In this document: one piece after another, positions 6,736 to 54,628 of the stretch
How the letters are laid out: the number at the start of each line of letters is the position of its first letter
Numbering within the stretch: position 1 is the stretch's first letter
From: Candidatus Latescibacterota bacterium
Lineage (GTDB): Bacteria; Latescibacterota; UBA2968; UBA8231
Direction of reading: 5' to 3'
NCBI GenBank assembly: GCA_965208105.1
Contig: OZ242318.1
Location: 3,744,001-3,808,000, forward strand
DNA: 64,000 nucleotides
Program-made: the position numbers and the translations under genes
Notes under the pieces: generated by a model
Told to the model about the DNA's origin: nothing
Database searches by the model: none
Seen by the model: only the letters and a program-made list of their open reading frames with translations

Positions 6736-7093
6736 GGGGGCGATTGGATTCGACGTGGGTGGAGAAGCCAGGATTGCGTGCCGAGGTCCCCGGCACCTCG
6801 TAAAAAAGCGGGGAAATTATTAAACGCCAATAGCGATTACGCTCTGGCTGCCTGAGCGATCGGGTAGCCCGCCGGGGCCGGTGGAGCCTGTGACGGCGGT
6901 CCTGGTGTCATCTCTTTGCAGGCTAGCCGAGATCTCTTCGTTCAGGGGGGTTTCAGCGAAATCTACTGAACTGGTTCCCCGGAAATCCTGTCAGTCGGAG
7001 TTGCGGGGAACGAGACCAATAGACTGACTACGCACGTAGCAGATCCGGCGGAACCATTTGCGGACGCGGGTTCGATTCCCGCCGCCTCCACCA
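6736..7093 (+). ncRNA. ssrA: tmRNA; tag reading frame 6826-6855 encodes ANSDYALAA*
   Basis: 5' GGGGGCGATTGGATTCGAC; 3' GACGCGGGTTCGATTCCCGCCGCCTCCACCA; acceptor stem with G3:U pair; tag ends in YALAA. Confidence 0.97.
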
Positions 7094-21616: not shown

Positions 21617-23287
21617 TCATCTCGCCCCGCGCCGGCGCAACATGTCCGCCACCTCTCCGTGCCCCCGGCGCTGAGCCCAGGCCAGCGGCCGCGCCCAGTC
21701 CTCGCCGGCCCCGTTTGGGTCGGCTCTGTTCTCCAGAAGCAGCTCGACGAGCCGCGGCCGGCCGGCGCGCGCCGCCATGCCCAGCGGCGTCGAGCGGTCC
21801 GCCTCCTCGACGGCGTTGATATCCGCACCGTGTTCGAGAAACATGCTCAGCAGCTCCCCGGCCTCAGCCAGGTCACGGTGGTCAACGCAGACGTCGTGCA
21901 GCGGGGTGCGCCGATGCCAGTCGGGCAGGTTCGGATCGAGTCCGTGCTCCAGCAACTGCCGGGTCATGTGAGGCACGTTGTAGAGATACCCCTTGCACTC
22001 GGTGAGCACCTCGGGCATGGGGAACCGGCGCCGCAGCAGCATGCTCAGAATGGCCTCGTGGGCAACGGTGCTTTCCTTTCTGCGCAGCTTGCGATTGCAG
22101 CCGCTGACGACCGCGGTGTAAGGCGTCGTCAGGAACTCGGACTTCTCGGCCGAGAACGGATCTTCACAGTAGTTCAGGATCACCGCCAGGGTCTGGAGGT
22201 CGCCGCGCTGGGCGAAGTCCCAGGCCGTCACCGGTCGGCCTCCGTGACCGTAGAGCAATCCCCGCATCGCATCGGAGGAGGCCTGGATCGCCGGCGTCCC
22301 CGACGAGTCGACGCCTCCGTTGGGGTCCGCCCCTGCTTCCAGCAGCCAGCGCGCCATTTCCACGTCGTCCTTCACCGCGGCCGCCATCAGGGCGAAGCCG
22401 TGGGGGCACTGGCGTCCTTCGGGCAGGATCGGATCGGCGCCGCGGTCGAGAAGGTAGCGCACCATCTCCCGGTGACCCCGCTCCGCGGCGGCCGAAAGCG
22501 GCCGCTTCTGCAACCCTTCCCCTTCATTGGCCGCGGCCGGGTCCGCTTCGACGAATGCGCGCAATGCGCCGTGGTCGCCGCGCGCCGCCGCCAGGGCCGG
22601 GCTGTCGGCGGCTCCCGCGTCGAGCAGCATCTGCAACAGCGCTGCGCCGCCCTCGTCAGAGCCCCAGTACTGGTTCTTCCAGAAGGCGTAGTGGGCGGCG
22701 CGAAAGCCGCGGTGATCCACCGCGTCCACGTCGATCCCGTCCGCCAGCAGCATAGCCACCGTGTCGCCGTCGCCGCCGAGTGCCGCCAGGTGCAGGGCGG
22801 TCCTCCCCTGCCTGTCGCGGTGCTCGGCTATTCCCGGGACCGCGGCCAGCAGCTGCGCGACCTCGCCGCGGTCCCGGGCTTCCACCGCCCGGAGCAGACG
22901 CAGGTCGGAACTTTCTGCCGCCGGGCCCAGGGAAGCGCGCAGATAGGCGGCGATTCCGTCGTGTCCGCGGTCGTCAGCCATCTGGATGAGGTCGGAGACC
23001 TCGTCGAACGGGTAGGCTTCCCACAGCACCCGGGTTGCATCAAGGCTGCCCTCGCGGACCGCGAAGTTGAGCGGCGGCGTATACCAGAACTCGAGGCGGG
23101 GGCAGTCCGGGTCTTTTTTCAGGAGGTCGCCGATGGTCTGCGCGTCGTTGCGGATGGCGGCGCAGACAAGGTCCCAGTAGAGGCGGCCCTTTTCAGTATC
23201 GACGCACCACCTGGGGCGGTGGATGGCGTCGATCTTCTCCTTCGCGCTGCGGCTTCTGGAATCGGATCCTGGAGAATTCATCGTCAT
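21617..23287 (-). CDS. Ankyrin-repeat protein
   Basis: Multiple repeats: GRTALHLAA, RPLSAAAERGH, RTPLHDVC, STPLGMAARAGR. Confidence 0.85.
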   Translation of the reverse strand: MTMNSPGSDSRSRSAKEKIDAIHRPRWCVDTEKGRLYWDLVCAAIRNDAQTIGDLLKKDPDCPRLEFWYTPPLNFAVREGSLDATRVLWEAYPFDEVSDLIQMADDRGHDGIAAYLRASLGPAAESSDLRLLRAVEARDRGEVAQLLAAVPGIAEHRDRQGRTALHLAALGGDGDTVAMLLADGIDVDAVDHRGFRAAHYAFWKNQYWGSDEGGAALLQMLLDAGAADSPALAAARGDHGALRAFVEADPAAANEGEGLQKRPLSAAAERGHREMVRYLLDRGADPILPEGRQCPHGFALMAAAVKDDVEMARWLLEAGADPNGGVDSSGTPAIQASSDAMRGLLYGHGGRPVTAWDFAQRGDLQTLAVILNYCEDPFSAEKSEFLTTPYTAVVSGCNRKLRRKESTVAHEAILSMLLRRRFPMPEVLTECKGYLYNVPHMTRQLLEHGLDPNLPDWHRRTPLHDVCVDHRDLAEAGELLSMFLEHGADINAVEEADRSTPLGMAARAGRPRLVELLLENRADPNGAGEDWARPLAWAQRRGHGEVADMLRRRGAR

Positions 23288-34849: not shown

Positions 34850-35467
34850 ATGAGCAATGATATCGAGGACCTCATCGATGCAAGCAGGAAGGGCGATCTG
34901 GAAAAGGTCCGTCTGATTATCGAAAGCGGAGTCGATGTCAATGCACAAGGGGCTCACGGCAACACCGCGCTGGTCAGCTCCTTCGCTTTCGGCGACCACC
35001 TGGATCTCGTTCGGCACCTCATTTCTCTCGGCGCCGACGTGGACTATACCGGAATGGAGGAGGGCAGCCCCCTCATGCTGGCAGCTTTCGCCGGCAAGAC
35101 CGAGCATATGAAGCTGTTCATCGCGGCAGGAGCCGACGTCAATCTATCCATGCCGGTGGGAGGGGAGACGGCCCTGCACGACGCTGCCGTCCAGGGACAC
35201 ACCGACGCGGTGGAGCTGCTGATCGCGGCAGGCGCCGACGTGAACAGGACCACCAACAGCAACGCCGCCACCTCCATGTTCACCGACAGGAAGCTCATGG
35301 GCGAAACTCCCTTGCATTTTGCGGCCGCCTTCGGTGACGCAGCGATGATCACGGCGCTGCTGGAAGCGGGAGCAGAGAAATCGATGGCGAATTCGCAAGG
35401 TGAACTTGCCCTCGATTACGCGACCCGCAAGGGGAGGCCCGAGGAGATCCTCGAGCTGCTCAGGTAG
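34850..35467 (+). CDS. Ankyrin-repeat protein
   Basis: GNTAL, GSPLMLAA, GETALHDAA, GETPLHFAA. Confidence 0.9.
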   Translation: MSNDIEDLIDASRKGDLEKVRLIIESGVDVNAQGAHGNTALVSSFAFGDHLDLVRHLISLGADVDYTGMEEGSPLMLAAFAGKTEHMKLFIAAGADVNLSMPVGGETALHDAAVQGHTDAVELLIAAGADVNRTTNSNAATSMFTDRKLMGETPLHFAAAFGDAAMITALLEAGAEKSMANSQGELALDYATRKGRPEEILELLR

Positions 35468-35604: not shown

Positions 35605-36642
35605 GTGCGCCTGTGCGCGGACGCGCTTCCCGACAGAATCGAGAACGTGGAAGAATTGGAGGAGCTGTTATCTCGTCCGAGCGATGACGTCGTCGAAGAT
35701 ATGGCGCGGGTCGAAGGCGGCGTCCTCATTCTGGGTGGAAGCGGAAAGGTGGGACCCACCCTTGCCCGCATGGCACGGCGCGCGGCGCCGCGCAAGCAGG
35801 TGGTCGCCGTGGCGCGCTTCAGCGATTCCGGGGTGCGCGAACGCCTGAGTTCGTGGGACATCGAAACGATCTGCTGCGACCTGTTCGATCCCGCCGCGGT
35901 GAGCCTGCTGCCGCGTTTGCCCAACGTCATCTTCATGGCCGGCCGCAAATTCGGCACCACCGGCCAGGAAGAGCTGACCTGGGCAACCAACGTCCACCTG
36001 CCCGGCATTGTAGCCCGGACCTTCGCCGGCTCGAAAATCATCGCCTTCTCCACTCTGTGTGTCTATCCCTTCGCCGACGCCGGCGGCCCCGGATGGGACG
36101 AGAGCGCGGAGGTCGGGCCGGTAGGCGAATACGCCAACTCCTGCGTCGGCCGCGAACGCATCTTCCAGCATTTCTCCGAACAACAGGACACGCCTGGCCG
36201 GCTGATTCGGCTGAACTACGCCATCGATCTGCGCTACGGAGTGTTGCACGACGTGGCCTCGCAAGTTTGGCGGAAGCAGCCCGTCGACGTGACCATGCCC
36301 GAGGTCAACGTGATCTGGCAGGGAGACGCCACGTCCCAGATCCTGCGCGCCCTGCGCCACTGCACCGTTCCCACCAGCCCCTTGAACGTGGGCGGTCCGA
36401 GCCAAACCTCGATAGAAGCGCTTGCCCAGGCCTTCGCAGCGCGTTTCGGCACCGAGCCCATATTCACCGGCCGTCCGTCTTCCACCGCGTGGATCAACGA
36501 TACCTCCCAGGCCACCGGTCTCTTCGGACCGCCGCTCGTTCCCCTCGAGCGCATGATCGACTGGACCGCGGACTGGGTCTCGCGGGAAATGCCGGGTTAT
36601 GCCAAGCCCACCCGCTACGAGGTCCGCGATGGGCGCTTCTGA
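35605..36642 (+). CDS. NAD-dependent epimerase/dehydratase
   Basis: LGGSGKVG, MAGRKFG, GEYANSC, RLNYA. Confidence 0.85.
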   Translation: MRLCADALPDRIENVEELEELLSRPSDDVVEDMARVEGGVLILGGSGKVGPTLARMARRAAPRKQVVAVARFSDSGVRERLSSWDIETICCDLFDPAAVSLLPRLPNVIFMAGRKFGTTGQEELTWATNVHLPGIVARTFAGSKIIAFSTLCVYPFADAGGPGWDESAEVGPVGEYANSCVGRERIFQHFSEQQDTPGRLIRLNYAIDLRYGVLHDVASQVWRKQPVDVTMPEVNVIWQGDATSQILRALRHCTVPTSPLNVGGPSQTSIEALAQAFAARFGTEPIFTGRPSSTAWINDTSQATGLFGPPLVPLERMIDWTADWVSREMPGYAKPTRYEVRDGRF

Positions 36643-36685
36643 AGGTCGCGGAGGGGGCGCTGATGATCGGGCTCCAGCAAATCCG

Positions 36686-37435
36686 ATGATTTCCGGGCAG
36701 TTCATCGCCCAGCTCGGCCTCGACCGGGACAAGGTCCCATCCTGGAAGGATTTCCCCTTTTGCCTGAGCGCCGTCCGCCACCTCGACAATATCGATCTGC
36801 ACCCCTCCGTCACTTTCTTCGTCGGCGAAAACGGTTCGGGCAAGTCCACCCTTCTCGAAGCGATAGCCGTGGCCTGGGGCTTCAATCCCGAGGGCGGCTC
36901 CAGGCACTTCCAGTTCGGGTCGCGGCCTTCCCACTCCGTCCTGCAGCGGTATATCCGCTTTTCCCGGGGGGTCAAAAGGGCGCGGGACGGCTACTTCCTG
37001 CGCGCTGAAAGCTTCTTCAACGTGGCGACGCAAATCGAGGAACTGGACGAGGAATTCGACAACATTCCCCGCATCGTCGACGCCTACGGCAGTCGTCCCC
37101 TGCACGAGCAGTCCCACGGCGAGTCTTTCCTTTCCCTCATGCTGAACCGGTTTGGCGGCAGGGGGTTGTATGTGCTGGACGAGCCCGAAGCCGCCCTGTC
37201 TCCCGGCCGGCAGATGGCGGTGCTGTCGCGGATGCACGACCTCGTGCGGCAGGATTCACAGTTCATCGTGGCGACCCACTCGCCCATAATTATGGCCTAT
37301 CCCCACTCCATCATCTACCAACTGTCGGACCAGGGGATGGAGGAGGTCGAGTACACCGAAACGGAGCATTTCTCGGTGGCCAAAGGCTTTCTCGAAAATC
37401 ACCGCAGAATGCTGGACCTGATTCTGGCGAGGTAG
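36686..37435 (+). CDS. AAA/ABC-type predicted ATPase (COG3910-like)
   Basis: GENGSGKST, FLRAESFF, SHGESF, LDEPEAALSP, ATHSP. Confidence 0.88.
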   Translation: MISGQFIAQLGLDRDKVPSWKDFPFCLSAVRHLDNIDLHPSVTFFVGENGSGKSTLLEAIAVAWGFNPEGGSRHFQFGSRPSHSVLQRYIRFSRGVKRARDGYFLRAESFFNVATQIEELDEEFDNIPRIVDAYGSRPLHEQSHGESFLSLMLNRFGGRGLYVLDEPEAALSPGRQMAVLSRMHDLVRQDSQFIVATHSPIIMAYPHSIIYQLSDQGMEEVEYTETEHFSVAKGFLENHRRMLDLILAR

Positions 37436-37664
37436 GCGATTAGGAGAAAAGGCGAGAAGATGAGCGATCTTCCGGGGTCGGCGGCCGAGGTCAGGACTTT
37501 CCCCCGTTGGTCACAAAATCATACAAGTCAAGCGAGGACCCGCTCCTGATTGGTAGCTGACAAAATTTGGTCCAAACTGGCCAACTACCAGGCGCGTCGA
37601 GCGAGCTTTGGCAGAATCCGGATCTGTTCAAGGGGGGGTACACCGCGTCCCGGCCGGGGATGGC

Positions 37665-37861
37665 GAACGGAAGAGACGCGAAGCCCTGTTGCTGATTCGC
37701 TGAGGGGCTCCCGGTGCTGAGTGGTTAGCGGCTAGGTCGTTGAGCGGCTTTGCCGGATAGTAGGTTATCAACCCCCGAGATCGCGCGTTGCAGTGCGCGT
37801 CGCTTCTGGGCTATGCGCCGTCACCGGCGCAGTCGCACTTGCTTCCCTGTCTCTTCCGTTC
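37665..37861 (-). ncRNA. Candidate structured RNA in the 3' region of the DIP1984-like gene
   Basis: Perfect 13-bp closing inverted repeat (37665-37677 / 37849-37861), GTGA-tetraloop hairpin (37814-37831), second hairpin (37782-37799), periodic A(G/A/T)C tract (37688-37766). Confidence 0.6.
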
Positions 37862-37870
37862 TACTCGTTC

Positions 37871-38407
37871 TTATTGTTCGTCAGCGTACTCCACCTCTAC
37901 CTCGAACGACGCGGCGCGGATCTGCCGATTGAGCTGGCGGAACTCGACGCGGACCTCGTTGAGACGGGTGCGGCAATCGTCGTAGGGCAACTCGTTGTCC
38001 TCGACGATGTCCCGCTCCTCCTTGTGGAGGACCCGCTCGTAGGCGGAGTCGACGACCTGGGTGTGCAGCTCTCCGAGGCGGTCGTTGAGCGCTTTGCGGG
38101 TCTCGAGGGCCTCGGTGAGGCTCATGTCGTCGCCCTCGTGCTCAACGCGGTGCTCGAAGTTGGCTCGCTGGATCGCGGCGTTCAGTTTGCGGCGTTTGAA
38201 CTCGAGGGTGCGCAACTGGTCGCGTGCCTCGGAGACGCTGAATCCTGGTGCCGGTCGGCGCGAGAAGTCGTTGTCACGACGGGAGAACAGGTCTCGATTC
38301 TGACGCGCCTCGGGCAGGCAGTCGCGCAGCGTCTTGATGCGGGCGTCGTACTCGCCCCGCAGCTCGAGGGCTTCGTAGAGTTTGACGGTCTTTCTGGCTT
38401 CGGTCAT
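37871..38407 (-). CDS. DIP1984-like coiled-coil protein
   Basis: Two internal repeats, KLYEALELR...IQRANF and SLTEALETR...IRAASF; strong RBS AAGGAGGTGA. Confidence 0.7.
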   Translation of the reverse strand: MTEARKTVKLYEALELRGEYDARIKTLRDCLPEARQNRDLFSRRDNDFSRRPAPGFSVSEARDQLRTLEFKRRKLNAAIQRANFEHRVEHEGDDMSLTEALETRKALNDRLGELHTQVVDSAYERVLHKEERDIVEDNELPYDDCRTRLNEVRVEFRQLNRQIRAASFEVEVEYADEQ

Positions 38408-38453
38408 ATCTCACCTCCTTCTATTTTACCGGGAGATGAATGAAATTCGAGGG

Positions 38454-38478
38454 GACGTAGAACAGTCGCAAGGGTTCC
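38454..38478 (-). promoter_or_regulatory. Putative ECF-sigma promoter
   Basis: GGAAC-16 nt-CGTC on the minus strand, 46 nt upstream of the DIP1984-like start codon. Confidence 0.45.
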
Positions 38479-38668
38479 AGCGACTTTTTGCGGGGGATGG
38501 AGAAGTGTAGTTTATCCAGGCCATCGGCGGCCAGGGCAGTGGGCTGAGTACCAAGCATCTGAGCGGCCTGCCCGGTTTCGTCGTCGACGCCAGCACAGGC
38601 AGCAAACCCGGAGACGCCACCCGCCCCGCGCGCGGAGGGTCCATCTCGACCAATGGTCCGGACCTGGC

Positions 38669-40678
38669 TCAGCTAGCGATGATCCGCCGACGACCACCTT
38701 CCAAACGGTCCAGCTCCTCCAGGCATCGAGGCCTGCGGCTGTTTTGCAGTCTCAAGGCGGCCAGGTACTCCTGCCATACGTCCTTGCGGCGGGTGCGATT
38801 GAGTACATTTCTAACCTTGCGCAGATAGGGAACCGCCGCCTGGTACCCACTGGCCTGAACCCGGGCGATATTATTTTTCGCGATCTCTTTCCAAATTGCC
38901 ACGGCCCGGTCCGGATGGGTCGATTTGACGGCTTCGGCCACCTCCTCGTCGAGGGAGAAGCCAAACATCCCGGACGGACCTTTTTTGCGGCCGCCGTGGT
39001 CGTACCACTTCAGAACTTCTTTCGGCTTTTTCTCGGCAATGGCCAACTGGGTCAGCACCTCGGTCATAGGCGCCTCAGATATCCAGGATGCTGCAGGCAC
39101 CGCGACCTCGGAAGCCGGCAGGGGCCAGGCTATCATCGGGTCGCTTTTGCGCTTCCTGCCGGCGCGGGGTCGCCGGCCGGTTTGCAGGTAGTGCCGCCCC
39201 CAGGCCTCGACTCCCTTGCCAGCGCGCGCGCTGCGGGCGGCTTTGCACAAATCCAGGAAATCGCCCGAACTGGGCCTGGCAAAAAATTCCTCCGCCTGTA
39301 AGGCCGGCCCGGCGAGCGGATTGCCGCTGCGCTGGTTTATGGTCTGCAGTTGTGGCCGCAGTCTCGCATTGAGGCCGCCAAACTCGGAGGACGCGGCCTC
39401 AATCCCCTGCCGGCACCAGCGCCGGGCCTCTTCCCAGCGCCGCCCGGCTATCAGGCGATTCACCAGGCGCCCGTAACTGAAGGTGATGGGGGCTTCGCGC
39501 TCGCACAGAGGAATGATATCCTTCCGACGGCCGGCCTTTTCCAGGGCTTTAATGAGCCAGTTGGAGATTCGGTCCCGTACGAAGTGATACGAAAGATCAT
39601 CATCTCCGGCAGGGGGGGACTCACAGGCCTCCAGGCGCTGTGTCAAGCGGTCGCAAACCGCGGACCAATCGCTTTTGGCGTAGTCTTTCTTCCAGAAGTT
39701 TTCCAGTCCGTCGGCGCACAGCTCGTAGTCGTCGGCCAGGGCCATGTCCAGGGCCCATTCTATCCGGTCTGCCGCCGCCAGGGAAGACCCATCCAGGGCG
39801 CGGAAAAGGACATTGAGGCAGTCGCTGATCGCATCGCCGGATTCTCCCTCATGCTCGTACTCCAGCACCCGGCTGCCCGCAGCCAGTAGTTCCGGCCCCA
39901 GTCGCACCGCCGCGTCGGCCTGTCCGGCTTCGACCAGTGTTTTGAGCGCCGCTTCGAGACGCTCCGTACTGGCAGCAGGGACCCCGTAGCCATAACCTTC
40001 CCATGCTGGTTCTTCCAGGGCTGCGATCTCGCCGCGGATCGTCTGCAGAACTTTGTGCGCCTTCCCCGAGGTCAGGGTGCGGCGGTCCTCAAGCGACCGG
40101 CGCACCCCCTCGTGCGCTTCGGCGAGTTGGACCAGCAGCGTTACCAGTTCGGCCTTGGTCTGCTTTTGCAGGTGCGCGCGCAGGGAAGAGAACATGGTTT
40201 GCCTGGAGCTTGCGGAACGCGCCTTGACGTTCTCCTCTTCCAGGTCTTCGCGGTACTCCTCCATATCGAACTCCTCCAGCTCCTCGAACTCTTCCTCGAT
40301 CGCGTCCAATTCCAGCAGGCGCGGATCGTCTTCCTCAACCCGGCCGATGGCGGTCTTGGCTTTTATCATTTCCAGGTATTTCAGCACCACGGCCACCGCG
40401 TGTTTGCAGGTCGCCCAGTATGGACAGGTACACTCTGATTCAAGATTCTTCCTTCCCTCGATGCGCACCCGGGTGGCATAGGGACGACTGCCCAGCACCC
40501 AGGCGACCAGCGTCCCGTCTTCGGCGCGCCCCAGGTCCCGAACAGCCCCCTGTCTCAGATAGGTCTGCCCCCGGGAGACGATGCGATCGCCGGCCCATTC
40601 CTCCAGGTCTTCCCAGGTGAGTTTCGAGAAGGGATCAACGGGCTTTTTCGGTTTGGTCTTTTTCTTTCGAGGAGCCAT
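38669..40678 (-). CDS. SWIM zinc-finger family protein
   Basis: RGQTY...V.GSRPY...CTCPYWATCKHAVAV, followed by a long helical region. Confidence 0.85.
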   Translation of the reverse strand: MAPRKKKTKPKKPVDPFSKLTWEDLEEWAGDRIVSRGQTYLRQGAVRDLGRAEDGTLVAWVLGSRPYATRVRIEGRKNLESECTCPYWATCKHAVAVVLKYLEMIKAKTAIGRVEEDDPRLLELDAIEEEFEELEEFDMEEYREDLEEENVKARSASSRQTMFSSLRAHLQKQTKAELVTLLVQLAEAHEGVRRSLEDRRTLTSGKAHKVLQTIRGEIAALEEPAWEGYGYGVPAASTERLEAALKTLVEAGQADAAVRLGPELLAAGSRVLEYEHEGESGDAISDCLNVLFRALDGSSLAAADRIEWALDMALADDYELCADGLENFWKKDYAKSDWSAVCDRLTQRLEACESPPAGDDDLSYHFVRDRISNWLIKALEKAGRRKDIIPLCEREAPITFSYGRLVNRLIAGRRWEEARRWCRQGIEAASSEFGGLNARLRPQLQTINQRSGNPLAGPALQAEEFFARPSSGDFLDLCKAARSARAGKGVEAWGRHYLQTGRRPRAGRKRKSDPMIAWPLPASEVAVPAASWISEAPMTEVLTQLAIAEKKPKEVLKWYDHGGRKKGPSGMFGFSLDEEVAEAVKSTHPDRAVAIWKEIAKNNIARVQASGYQAAVPYLRKVRNVLNRTRRKDVWQEYLAALRLQNSRRPRCLEELDRLEGGRRRIIAS

Positions 40679-40707: not shown

Positions 40708-41710
40708 GTAACCGTTCAGTTCTCTGGCGGGGGCGCCAGGAAAGACTACGAAATCTGGTTGGGCAGCAACGAGGGTGCTGGTTGGTTCCGCAAAGGGGCG
40801 TAACAGGCCAGCGTGAGAAAGTCGAGGACGTTGCGCTGCTGCTGACGCAGGGTGTCCCGCACTGTGAGCAGGCGCTCTGCGAAACGGCTGCCCTCGGCAC
40901 TGTGGCTGCCGAAGCTGGTGTGGCGCCACAACACGCCATGGCGAAGGGCTCGTTCGGCGTCGTTGTTCGTCGGCTCCACACCGTCCCGGTGGAAGAAGGT
41001 CCACAGGGCCGGCTCGAGGTCGAGGAAATTGCCGCAGGTGGCCGCCGTATGGGCGTCGGCGAACTGCTGTCCATGGCACAGGCGAAAACGAACCCGATGG
41101 CGCAGATCGCTGACATAGACTCGAAAGCTGGAGCGTTGCAGGGTACCATCGCGGATGCGTTGCCACCAGGTAAACAGCTTCTCGCTACAGTCCAACAGCT
41201 CCTGGCCGACCCAGGCGGCGTCTCCTTTTCGGGCCACAAAGTCCTCAAAGGTGCGCTGCAGATGTGCCCAACACACTAGGCGACGTCGAGGCGGCAAATG
41301 CCCGTAGACCGAAAATCGATCCGAGCCGATGATCGCCGTGCTGTCGTCGCCGAGCATCTCATCAACCACCTCCCGACCGCGACGGGTGCGAATCGCGAAC
41401 ACCGAAACGCCCTCTGTCACCACCGTCCACAACCACGCCTTGGCGCGGCGCTCCCGTCAGCTCGTCTCGTCCATATTGACCATGGCCTGTTGGCGAACGA
41501 AGGCCCGGGCCTCTGCCACCGGCTGGACCAGCGCTTCGGATACCTCTTGCTCCAGTTGGCTGATCGTACCCAGCGACACCTCCAGGCCGAACGCGTCGCA
41601 CAACAGCGCCCGGATGTTGCGCTTGCTCAAGCGGTAGGCGCCGGCCAACCCAAGCCTGCACGCTGGGACCGAAGGTGCGCCGCGACACCCCCTGCGGCCA
41701 GTCGGCCTCT
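40708..41710 (-). mobile_element. IS66-family remnant (TnpC pseudogene plus right end)
   Basis: DETS*RE..WLW, SDRFSVY, CWAHL, EPTNNDAERALR; in-frame TGA at 41457-41459; frameshift near 41645; terminal GTAACCGTTCA at 40708. Confidence 0.88.
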
Positions 41711-53440: not shown

Positions 53441-53514
53441 CTTTTCCTTCCTTCCCGGCGGATTTTTTGCGCTCCACCGCCGGACCCGGGGGTGGGAAAG
53501 TAGATCCCTATGCT

Positions 53515-53680
53515 TAGTGTCCCGTCGCAGAAATATGTCGCCATTTTTCCACCGATCCATCCCGGCTCACGGCGTTGCCTTTACTCGCCGTACACCACTG
53601 GTACGACTCGCTCAGGCGCCTTGTGAGCCGGGCGCCTCGGCGGCCCAATTGCGTCAACCTATCTCTGCGACGGGACACTA
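53515..53680. mobile_element. MITE, 166 bp, 21-bp terminal inverted repeats, probably IS630-type
   Basis: TAGTGTCCCGTCGCAGAAATA ... TATCTCTGCGACGGGACACTA (20/21 match); TA at both ends in (C/T)TAG context. Confidence 0.82.
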
Positions 53681-54628
53681 GTCGGTCTCTTCTTCCACCT
53701 GGCGGATGAGTCTCCTGAGGTTGGCGCAGTTGATGCGCATGGCGTCCACGTTCGTGCCCCCGGGAGGGGTGAAGTGGGTCGCCAGGGAGAGAAATACGTC
53801 GCAGTCGTGGTCGCGCAGGTTGCGCAGCACGGTGAGGTAGTCGGTGTCGCCCTCGCCCAGGGGGCAGTATTCGAAATCCAGGCTGAGGCCGTCGTTGATG
53901 CGCAGGTCCTTGAGGTGCAGACCGTAGATATAGGGCCGCACGTTTTGGAAGCCGGCGGTGGCCACGTCCAACTCGCCGCAGTTGGTGTTGTCCGCCGGTC
54001 CCCACATCACCTTGATGCGGCGGGAGCCGACGCGCTCGGCCACGCGGCGAAAGTTGGCGGTGGTGTTGGTGTAGTTCCACGGCATCATGGACACCGCCAC
54101 GTCCACCCCATGGCGCTCGGCCTCCTCGGCCACCAGGGAGAAGGCCTTGGTCAGCTTGTCCATGTCGGTGTCGGTGATGACCCCGCCGCGGGTGAGCCAG
54201 CGCATGGGCCAGGTGGGCTTGTCGGGTATCTCCCCGGGCCACAGGAAGGAGAACACGTTGACGGCGCCGACGCCGAGATAGGCGGCGACCTCCATGGTGC
54301 GCACCAGCTCGTCGAAGTCGCGGCGGAAGGTGGGGTGCTCCTCCAGGGTGTCCAGCGTGACCTCGGTCAGGTGGATTCCCTTGAAGTGGGGACGGTTCAG
54401 GAGCAGGAAGAACTCCTGGCCGCGCGCCGCCAGGCTGGCCTGCATGGCGTCGATCTCGGCGGCGCTCATCTCCACCAGGGCCTTGTCCTTCTTCAGGCCG
54501 CTGACTTCGCCGTTGCACATGTACCACAGGTACTTGACTTCGAGCTCGGCGGCCAGGTCAAGGGCTTCCTCGAAGGGCAGTTGGGGCTCGGTGAGAAACA
54601 TGCCGAGTTTGAATTTGTGTTTGCTCAT
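53678..54628 (-). CDS. Sugar-phosphate isomerase/epimerase (xylose-isomerase-like TIM barrel)
   Basis: WGPADN, LHLKD, PLGEGDTDY. Confidence 0.8.
   Translation of the reverse strand: MSKHKFKLGMFLTEPQLPFEEALDLAAELEVKYLWYMCNGEVSGLKKDKALVEMSAAEIDAMQASLAARGQEFFLLLNRPHFKGIHLTEVTLDTLEEHPTFRRDFDELVRTMEVAAYLGVGAVNVFSFLWPGEIPDKPTWPMRWLTRGGVITDTDMDKLTKAFSLVAEEAERHGVDVAVSMMPWNYTNTTANFRRVAERVGSRRIKVMWGPADNTNCGELDVATAGFQNVRPYIYGLHLKDLRINDGLSLDFEYCPLGEGDTDYLTVLRNLRDHDCDVFLSLATHFTPPGGTNVDAMRINCANLRRLIRQVEEETD

Follow-up and report, generated by a model that had tools for sequence, protein, structure and literature searches.

In type III toxin-antitoxin (TA) pairs (ToxIN, CptIN, TenpIN), a small protein and a cis-encoded, co-transcribed pseudoknotted RNA make up a two-part module. 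The RNA lies upstream of the gene with a terminator between them and consists of tandem repeats of ~34–45 nt; the toxin is an endoribonuclease (ToxN/AbiQ/CptN/TenpN type) that processes the RNA and is neutralised by binding to it. Other structured RNAs are each tied to one protein family, such as Ro (Rsr) and Y RNA, OLE and Oap, HEARO or omega RNA and IscB, and the DUF3800-linked motifs. In a further group, regularly spaced triplets are how multi-subunit RNA binders are loaded: TRAP reads the GAG/UAG triplets of the trp leader, CsrA reads the GGA motifs of CsrB/RsmZ, and HutP is similar. Here a structured RNA of ~197 nt was analysed which follows a DUF6847 (DIP1984-fold) gene in a 64,000-nt stretch of contig OZ242318.1 of a Candidatus Latescibacterota bacterium (the window). 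An earlier, sequence-only reading of the window had proposed an RNA of ~200 nt tied to this gene, forming a ribonucleoprotein (RNP), an autoregulatory element or a type III TA-like pair.

All the sequence details described in that reading were present, namely the stem opening 9 nt after the stop codon, the 171-nt spacing, the GAAGC/GCUUC extension, the hairpins and the A/C-rich tract. The parts of the gene and RNA in the window are listed below, where R1 is a covariance model of the RNA with 189 positions and 35 pairs, the pseudoknot being left out of the model.

37871..38407, minus strand: DUF6847/DIP1984-fold gene, an open reading frame (ORF) of 178 amino acids (aa), Pfam PF20935
37871-37873, minus strand: stop codon of the DUF6847 gene
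37862..37870, minus strand: spacer of 9 nt from the stop codon to the RNA
37665..37861, minus strand: whole structured RNA, ~197 nt (R1 core 37668-37857; cmsearch 154.9 bits, E 1.9e-38)
37849..37861, minus strand: 5′ strand of closing stem P1, GAACGGAAGAGAC (conserved core GAAGAGAC, 37849-37856; 6/8 P1 pairs change on both sides across loci)
37841..37845, minus strand: 5′ strand of stem P1b, GAAGC, pairing with 37680-37684 (4/5 pairs covary, 100% of cells paired)
37810..37836, minus strand: P2 domain (7/7 P2 pairs covary, 97.5% of cells paired)
37835-36 with 37810-11, minus strand: P2 clamp of invariant GC/GC pairs, followed by a GA/UA internal loop
37814-37831, minus strand: P2 hairpin of 7 bp, UGCGCCG-GUGA-CGGCGCA (arms 37825-31 with 37814-20; GNRA loop GUGA at 37821-24)
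37775..37809, minus strand: P3, CCAG...UCGG flanks plus a G+C hairpin with a conserved CUG in its loop (6/6 inner pairs covary, 62-71% of cells paired)
within 37779-37805, minus strand: the G+C hairpin of P3
37756..37774, minus strand: P4 hairpin GGG/ACC plus H-type pseudoknot (loop GAUA at 37766-69 pairs with UAUC at 37756-59)
37747..37755, minus strand: conserved single-stranded junction CGGCAAAGC (consensus CCGGnAAAGC)
37686..37746, minus strand: A/C-rich unpaired tract of ~8 units of 8 nt, each ending A-G-C (window units nnnYCAGC)
37680..37684, minus strand: 3′ strand of P1b, GCUUC, pairing with 37841-37845
37665..37677, minus strand: 3′ strand of P1, GUCUCUUCCGUUC, the 3′ boundary of the conserved cassette

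The two P1 arms in the window were 100% complementary over 13 nt, with 171 nt between them and GAAGC/GCUUC extending the stem, and neither occurred elsewhere in the window. Three perfect inverted repeats of at least 13 nt with a gap of at most 300 nt were found in the 64 kb, where 40 first-order Markov simulations averaged 0.6. The minus strand folded at -80.8 kcal/mol (z -2.30; 6/200 shuffles equal) and the plus strand folded similarly (z -2.35). The evidence in the window alone was thus only marginally beyond chance, and conservation across loci was decisive. The next gene (36599..37435) is convergent, indicating that the element belongs to the 3′ end of the DUF6847 gene, rather than being the leader of another gene.

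A protein search gave 478 relatives, and a scan of one genome per species gave 107 loci encoding a relative, of which the best 80 (L001-L080) were kept. By their records they came from about a dozen phyla: Latescibacterota, Gemmatimonadota, Desulfobacterota, Acidobacteriota, Chloroflexota, Spirochaetota, Verrucomicrobiota/Lentisphaerota/Kiritimatiellia, Nitrospinota, SAR324, Lindowbacteria and Desantisbacteria among them. Two short module-bearing contigs (L025 and L050) were binned as archaea (Bathyarchaeota, Thermoplasmata). The RNA stretch of L050 was identical to that of L036, a Desulfobacterota metagenome-assembled genome, and its archaeal assignment is therefore not trusted; mis-binning of the two contigs is likelier than archaeal presence.

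The window and the 80 loci (509,249 bases, both strands) were searched with R1 by cmsearch. Eighty hits were obtained, one in the window (the only one in its 64 kb) and 79 in 79/80 loci, every one of them on the gene's strand and directly 3′ of the gene. Among the 80 loci, 75 carried a full-length RNA (102-180 bits), two were cut by contig ends (L001, L025) and two were deletion remnants (L058, L048), showing the closing stem behind homologues. Hits away from the DUF6847 gene were absent from the 509 kb, and blastn of the RNA against plasmid and phage collections gave no match. Strict linkage of the RNA to the gene was thus shown by sequence comparison among these loci, with the same architecture and compensatory changes, and the main proposal of the sequence-only reading, an RNA of ~200 nt tied to this gene, is supported.

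Searches by sequence similarity agreed with the model. The intergenic region of the window matched 58/80 loci by blastn; in distant loci the match was confined to a single 49-nt stretch immediately behind the stop codon, 78-92% identical where the proteins were only 45-63% identical. A fuzzy search located the 5′ motif in 77/80 loci, always on the gene's strand, and its 3′ partner GUCUC lay 174-190 nt beyond it in 66/78 copies (window included); most other copies had compensated arms, e.g. GGAGGC/GCCUCC or GAAGAC/GUCUUC. The distance from the stop codon to the RNA motif was mostly a few to ~25 nt and longer in some loci (e.g. L003, L026, L046 and L059). Over 76 copies, which were also used for the tract and U-run statistics below, the minimum, median and maximum lengths of the RNA were 185, 191 and 204 nt.

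Three loci had lost parts of the module. In L048 (3537-3627) a minimal variant consisting of AAAGC, the AGC tract and the P1 3′ strand lay directly behind the gene, the last codons of which partly mimicked the P1 5′ strand; the 5′ head (P2, P3 and the pseudoknot) was missing. L058 (3396-3512) was decayed: its gene broke off at residue 147, and of the RNA no more than the tract and P1 3′ strand was left. L078 was also decayed; its gene stopped near residue 139 and no RNA was found.

Covariation and pairing were assessed on 73 copies aligned by MAFFT without regard to structure, and on a second alignment fitted to R1. RNAalifold, unaided, recovered the closing stems and the GNRA hairpin P2 from a MAFFT alignment, with 18/24 pairs compensated. 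In the structure-blind alignment of the 73 copies 84.4% of cells were paired, against 73.2% in shuffles and 34-46% in a slid control (partners shifted by 1-3 columns), and the covariation score was 0.367 against 0.154 in shuffles, none of 500 of which reached the observed value. The cells were counted over sequences and not over independent events, and the compensated variants stemmed from different phyla. Both-side changes were seen at 6/8 pairs of P1a, 4/5 of P1b, 7/7 of P2 and 4/4 of the pseudoknot. The latter had 83% of cells paired; on the R1-fitted alignment 3/4 of its pairs covaried, again with 83% of cells paired, although it was absent from the model. P3, its flanks and P4 were less certain (56-74% of cells paired), partly for reasons of alignment register, and the low pairing of the P3 inner helix is attributed to the imperfect alignment there. 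In an all-against-all covariation scan the top column pairs were those of P2, followed by or together with those of the pseudoknot, P1 and P3, and the remainder resembled noise of composition or phylogeny. The conserved closing stem was in two parts, P1a of 6-9 bp and P1b of 5 bp, and the 13-bp stem of the window is a clade-specific extension of it. These comparisons show a common secondary structure.

The strand was shown by three features of the sequences. Over 26 well-aligned pairs, 77 G-U and 22 A-C cells were counted on the gene's strand; the P2 loop, which apart from a few rows was GUGA, GCGA, GCAA, GAGA or GUAA, was a GNRA loop on the gene's strand only; and all hits were on that strand. 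Thus the gene's strand is the functional one, in agreement with the sense of transcription proposed earlier, from the minus strand of the window.

The 3′ third of the RNA, from AAAGC to P1b, had no conserved pairing. This tract was 55-71 nt long (76 copies) and composed of A 36%, C 31%, G 20% and U 14%, and the autocorrelation of its column conservation peaked at lags of 8, 16 and 24 (0.51, 0.34 and 0.23). In the window its units were CGCUCAAC, GACCUAGC, CGCUAACC, ACUCAGC, ACCGGGAGC, CCCUCAGC and GAAUCAGC. Tandem Repeats Finder on 37400-38500 gave 0 rows at a score of at least 30, and a repeat search likewise gave no tandem family.

To locate the ends of the conserved unit, 18 loci with unrelated flanks were compared by pairwise blastn. 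Similarity began near the start codon in most pairs and stopped within ~5 nt of the P1 3′ strand in most pairs, or inside the RNA in the most divergent ones. DNA similarity thus runs from the start codon to the closing stem, indicating that the gene and RNA form one cassette of ~730 bp, with boundaries shown at the level of sequence. Apart from antisense ORFs overlapping the gene itself, none of the flanking gene families was common to more than 9 of 81 sources; no conserved third gene was found among them, and the downstream proteins were unrelated between clades. A U-rich run (5 or more U among 8 nt, in the first 20 nt past P1) followed the stem in 47/76 copies, suggesting that P1 probably doubles as a terminator. 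The earlier observation that a U-tract is lacking is true of the window and is peculiar to its clade, which has the longer 13-bp stem instead. In the window the 83 nt past P1 folded worse than shuffles (z +2.25), and the sole terminator-like site on the minus strand lay ~120 nt beyond the element (37543..37523), with none at the element. No promoter-like site was seen between the gene and the RNA in the window.

The RNA matched no catalogued family. At gathering score, Rfam 15 reported only a transfer-messenger RNA (tmRNA) and a tRNA in the whole window, and only one tRNA in 20 diverse loci; in E-value mode (E up to 10) on 3 kb and on 241 nt of the window the best match had E 0.25 and scored 16 bits where the gathering score is 70, and the L063 and L027 copies gave noise. 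A literature search with exact RNA strings returned no paper on the RNA, all the listed matches being to an 11-nt string alone. Listings of papers on new type III families and on structured RNAs named neither DUF6847 nor this RNA, nor was it mentioned in the searched passages of a large preprint catalogue of non-coding motifs, which could still list it elsewhere. Judged from its sequence, the RNA is a new family with a defined fold, absent from the catalogued families.

The protein belonged to Pfam DUF6847 (PF20935; 45.5 bits against a cut-off of 27, E 9.6e-12), its sole Pfam family. It scored 42 bits against NCBIfam DIP1984_fam (NF038048), below the curated cut-off of 70, as did 19/19 tested representatives of its subfamily (15 at 21-36 bits, four without a hit), indicating that it lies in a sister subfamily of DIP1984. 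This subfamily is small: of 1.84 billion representatives searched, it accounted for 212 clusters at E up to 0.001. The AlphaFold2 model (pLDDT 88.6) had four long helices and beta-hairpins, and on this model the best Foldseek match was PDB 3kdq (E 5.2e-05, TM-scores 0.61/0.69), a Corynebacterium diphtheriae protein of unknown function; two chains of 3kdq were the only significant PDB matches (E up to 0.001), and the sequence-profile match to it was weak (E 0.21). The DIP1984 fold was also seen in uncharacterised phage proteins (best E 3.6e-06). Residues 10-90 aligned with residues 97-175 (27% identity, E 7e-04). The model thus describes an internally duplicated alpha/beta fold like that of 3kdq, not the plain coiled coil of the sequence-only reading. 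In the literature searched for DUF6847, DIP1984 or PF20935 no account of the family's function was found, only an incidental mention in one paper.

Many Arg, Lys, Asn and Gln residues were invariant in the family. The protein is predicted to be a homodimer, with a score of 0.68 against 0.00 for the best of three controls, agreement between runs on at least 98% of contacts and a partner pLDDT of at least 86. This mark was reached by 20/30 proteins solved as pairs of one chain and by 1/23 solved as single chains, counts that are only a rough guide here, the homodimer run having used our own alignment; the pass may also reflect memory of a structure, since the relative 3kdq (4 chains) is already solved.

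Searches for relatives with a known role gave little. PHROGs gave weak matches only; the best spanned 48 residues of a ‘tail fiber’ family match (E 3.9e-04), and these were regarded as noise. tblastn with the window protein (E up to 10) and with a distant representative (P0189) found no match in the plasmid and phage collections. Fused or longer forms were absent from 898 candidates, which is weak evidence, and the ESM Atlas returned only DUF6847 clusters and one unnamed, half-viral cluster, to be taken as a lead only. A DIP1984 family gene is reported to be annotated on Acinetobacter plasmids. From similar gene lists we infer that the annotations ‘septicolysin’ and ‘DIP1984 family protein’ on Acinetobacter plasmids may be linked.

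The module thus characterised resembles the type III TA pairs in joining a small protein and a cis-encoded pseudoknotted RNA, probably on one transcript, and in its setting among defence and TA genes. It differs in gene order, the RNA following the gene, on its 3′ side, both in the window and at all 79 loci that have it; in RNA design, a single 190-nt fold with an 8-nt micro-periodicity replacing the long tandem repeats; and in the protein, which has the DIP1984 fold and matched no ToxN/AbiQ/CptN/TenpN-type, PADLOC or other nuclease family. As to the suggestion of a type III TA-like pair, it failed on all three of the defining features put to the test, namely the array of repeats, the order of the genes and the family of the toxin, so that the module is not a member of that class, and what is left of the suggestion is that it may work like one.

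With TRAP, CsrA and HutP the tract shares a near-invariant triplet (here AGC) at fixed spacing in a variable, unstructured sequence, a likeness of mechanism only and not of membership. Here the period is 8 nt over ~8 units, the tract is closed by P1 with a folded head in front, and the protein is of an unrelated fold for which only a dimer is predicted. With Ro/Y RNA, OLE, HEARO and the DUF3800 motifs the RNA shares linkage to a gene and ends joined by a terminal stem; it differs in lacking an Rfam match, in its protein family and in being probably appended to the 3′ end of an mRNA. To the DIP1984/DUF6847 family represented by 3kdq the protein is joined by its Pfam score and by the superposition of the folds, and it is set apart from DIP1984 proper by its score under NF038048.

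We consider it probable, by a slight balance, that the gene and RNA are one cassette giving an RNP from a single transcript, likely of an addiction or defence type in which the RNA restrains the protein. The RNA would form the 3′ end of the mRNA that encodes the protein, beginning a few bases past the stop codon, and in most lineages the transcript would end at P1, which together with the U-run looks like an intrinsic terminator. It would fold closed, P1 and P1b joining its ends around the 5′ head (P2, P3 and P4 with the pseudoknot), and behind the head a single-stranded loop of ~60-70 nt would display AGC every 8 nt. DUF6847 dimers may dock on this tract. The head would confer specificity or nucleate binding, the fixed length of the tract would determine how many proteins are bound, and the RNA would restrain the protein in the manner of type III TA pairs. 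Since the cassette travels alone, often among TA, defence and transposase genes, an addiction or defence module is the most likely role; it is plausible, and it is the least secure step of the proposal.

On the context, domains of TA, defence or transposase families were found in 26/141 nearest-neighbour ORFs (23 loci), which is a raw count without a background rate. The toxins or antitoxins counted were MqsA, RelE, BrnT, HigB, ParE, MazE, TacA and FitA, and the other domains were PIN, Fic, HepT, AbiE, restriction, Wadjet, immunity and IS200/IS605 transposase. Several points weigh against this reading. PADLOC has no model or family for the protein. In L048 the gene is apparently intact and keeps the invariant residues of the family though the RNA head is lost, suggesting that the full RNA is not indispensable there. 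A conserved basic stripe on helix 4 (R153, R157, R161 and R164) sits in the predicted dimer interface and would then not be free for RNA binding. Known type III systems such as ToxIN have an excess of RNA built in, whereas here one transcript would give one RNA and many proteins. Co-transcription itself is deduced from spacing and strand only. The loci were picked via the protein, the sample covering the 80 top-ranked loci and leaving 27 lower-ranked relatives and the classical DIP1984 genes outside it, and the exclusion of gene-less RNA copies holds within the 509 kb and the plasmid and phage collections.

Since the RNA starts a few nt past the stop codon on the same strand, without a promoter-like site between them in the window, it could be a purely cis-acting 3′ untranslated region (UTR) with no separate RNP function. 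It would then act in termination, in protection against 3′ exonucleases, or in the control of this one mRNA's stability or translation by the protein or by a host factor (Rho, Hfq, S1). P1 with its U-run resembles an intrinsic terminator in the 47/76 copies, and the C-rich, G-poor unpaired tract is like a Rho loading site in composition. However, a terminator or stabiliser needs no 190 nt, pseudoknot, GNRA hairpin or unpaired stretches conserved better than the protein across phyla; the tract is fixed in length and in its 8-nt register; and the clade of the window has no U-run. We regard a 3′ UTR of this kind as unlikely. That the RNA itself is the main actor (a ribozyme, sponge or trans-acting regulator), with the DUF6847 protein only a chaperone, processing factor or protector, would agree with an RNA sequence better conserved than the protein, with the highly conserved unpaired nucleotides and pseudoknot typical of RNAs with a tertiary fold, and with the retention of the tract and P1 in L048 and L058 while other parts were lost. 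Against it, no gene-less copy occurred in the 509 kb, no Rfam family, ribozymes included, was matched at E up to 10, and the context varies by locus and suggests no target or ligand; this explanation is quite unlikely.

The feature is an inverted repeat, and its cassette-like boundaries, promoterless look and small TA and transposase neighbours recall integron cassettes, so that a DNA-level element (an integron attC, a miniature inverted-repeat transposable element (MITE), or a recombination or transposon end) might merely travel with the gene. The excess of G-U over A-C cells on the gene's strand, the GNRA loop and the covariation of the pseudoknot point instead to RNA. The element is ~190 nt long with conserved sequence, unlike attC, is present once per locus and nowhere else in the 509 kb, and none of the 141 nearest-neighbour ORFs matched an integrase family. 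A DNA element is accordingly held to be highly improbable. A crude pattern search for attC sites (RYYYAAC...GTTRRRY, paired inner arms, 57-141 nt), with a strict filter, found 0 in the 80 loci against 0.4 in shuffles. A MITE or dispersed repeat, the alternative under which copies without the gene had been foreseen, was rejected: there was one copy in the window, none away from the gene in the 80 loci, and no plasmid or phage match.

The neighbours of the module and the other features of the window were as follows.

36599..37435, plus strand: short AAA_21/AAA_15 ATPase (278 aa) next to the module, resembling the mad3, AriA and PtuA-type defence ATPases
38669-40678, minus strand: SWIM zinc-finger protein (669 aa) on the other flank, PADLOC candidate PDC-S62 (E 8.8e-18)
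40746-41432, minus strand: IS66-family transposase fragment (228 aa), matching profile positions 92-282 of 284
34850-35467, plus strand: ankyrin-repeat protein (205 aa), unusual for bacteria
6736-7093, plus strand: tmRNA gene, tag peptide ANSDYALAA
62999-63076, plus strand: tRNA-Pro(UGG) gene
22833-22878: third perfect inverted repeat, CCCGGGACCGCGG, its 13-nt arms separated by 20 nt
53505-53690, plus strand: rod-like hairpin, ~170 nt long, with a perfect closing stem of 17 bp (minimum free energy -85.3 against -55.1 kcal/mol in shuffles)

The IS66 fragment lay ~2.3 kb upstream of the DUF6847 gene, past the SWIM gene. The hairpin at 53505-53690 (z -7.3, 0/200 shuffles folding as well) was stronger than the DUF6847-linked element, lay between or overlapped the ends of long ORFs and had no match in Rfam at gathering score. 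Candidate identities for it are a MITE, a palindrome resembling a terminator, and another RNA. In a PVC-group clade an HTH_31 (XRE-type) gene preceded the module in four loci (L063, L064, L074 and L080), and in six (also L073 and L075) a conserved protein of ~375-380 aa without a Pfam family followed it on the same strand. The HTH_31 gene or the ~375-380-aa gene may represent an addition to the module particular to this clade.

Uncatalogued large structured RNAs spanning phyla are rare. The strict one-to-one link joins an orphan RNA to an orphan protein family with a crystal structure since 2009, and gives a testable hypothesis, that the protein binds the RNA. We tentatively propose, while thinking it rather doubtful, that the module is a new class of RNA-protein addiction or defence system, made of a DIP1984-fold protein and an antidote that is a single, non-repetitive, pseudoknotted RNA, in which an AGC ruler of about eight units, spaced 8 nt apart in the closed loop, would load a fixed number of dimers and decay of the RNA would free the protein. 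If so, it would have an RNA-antitoxin architecture with no relation to ToxIN, CptIN or TenpIN, whether in the order of the genes, in the design of the RNA or in the fold of the protein, and would provide the first function for the DUF6847/DIP1984 family, its phage and plasmid relatives included. If the module is not of a TA or defence type, it would still be a new bacterial RNP across many uncultivated phyla.

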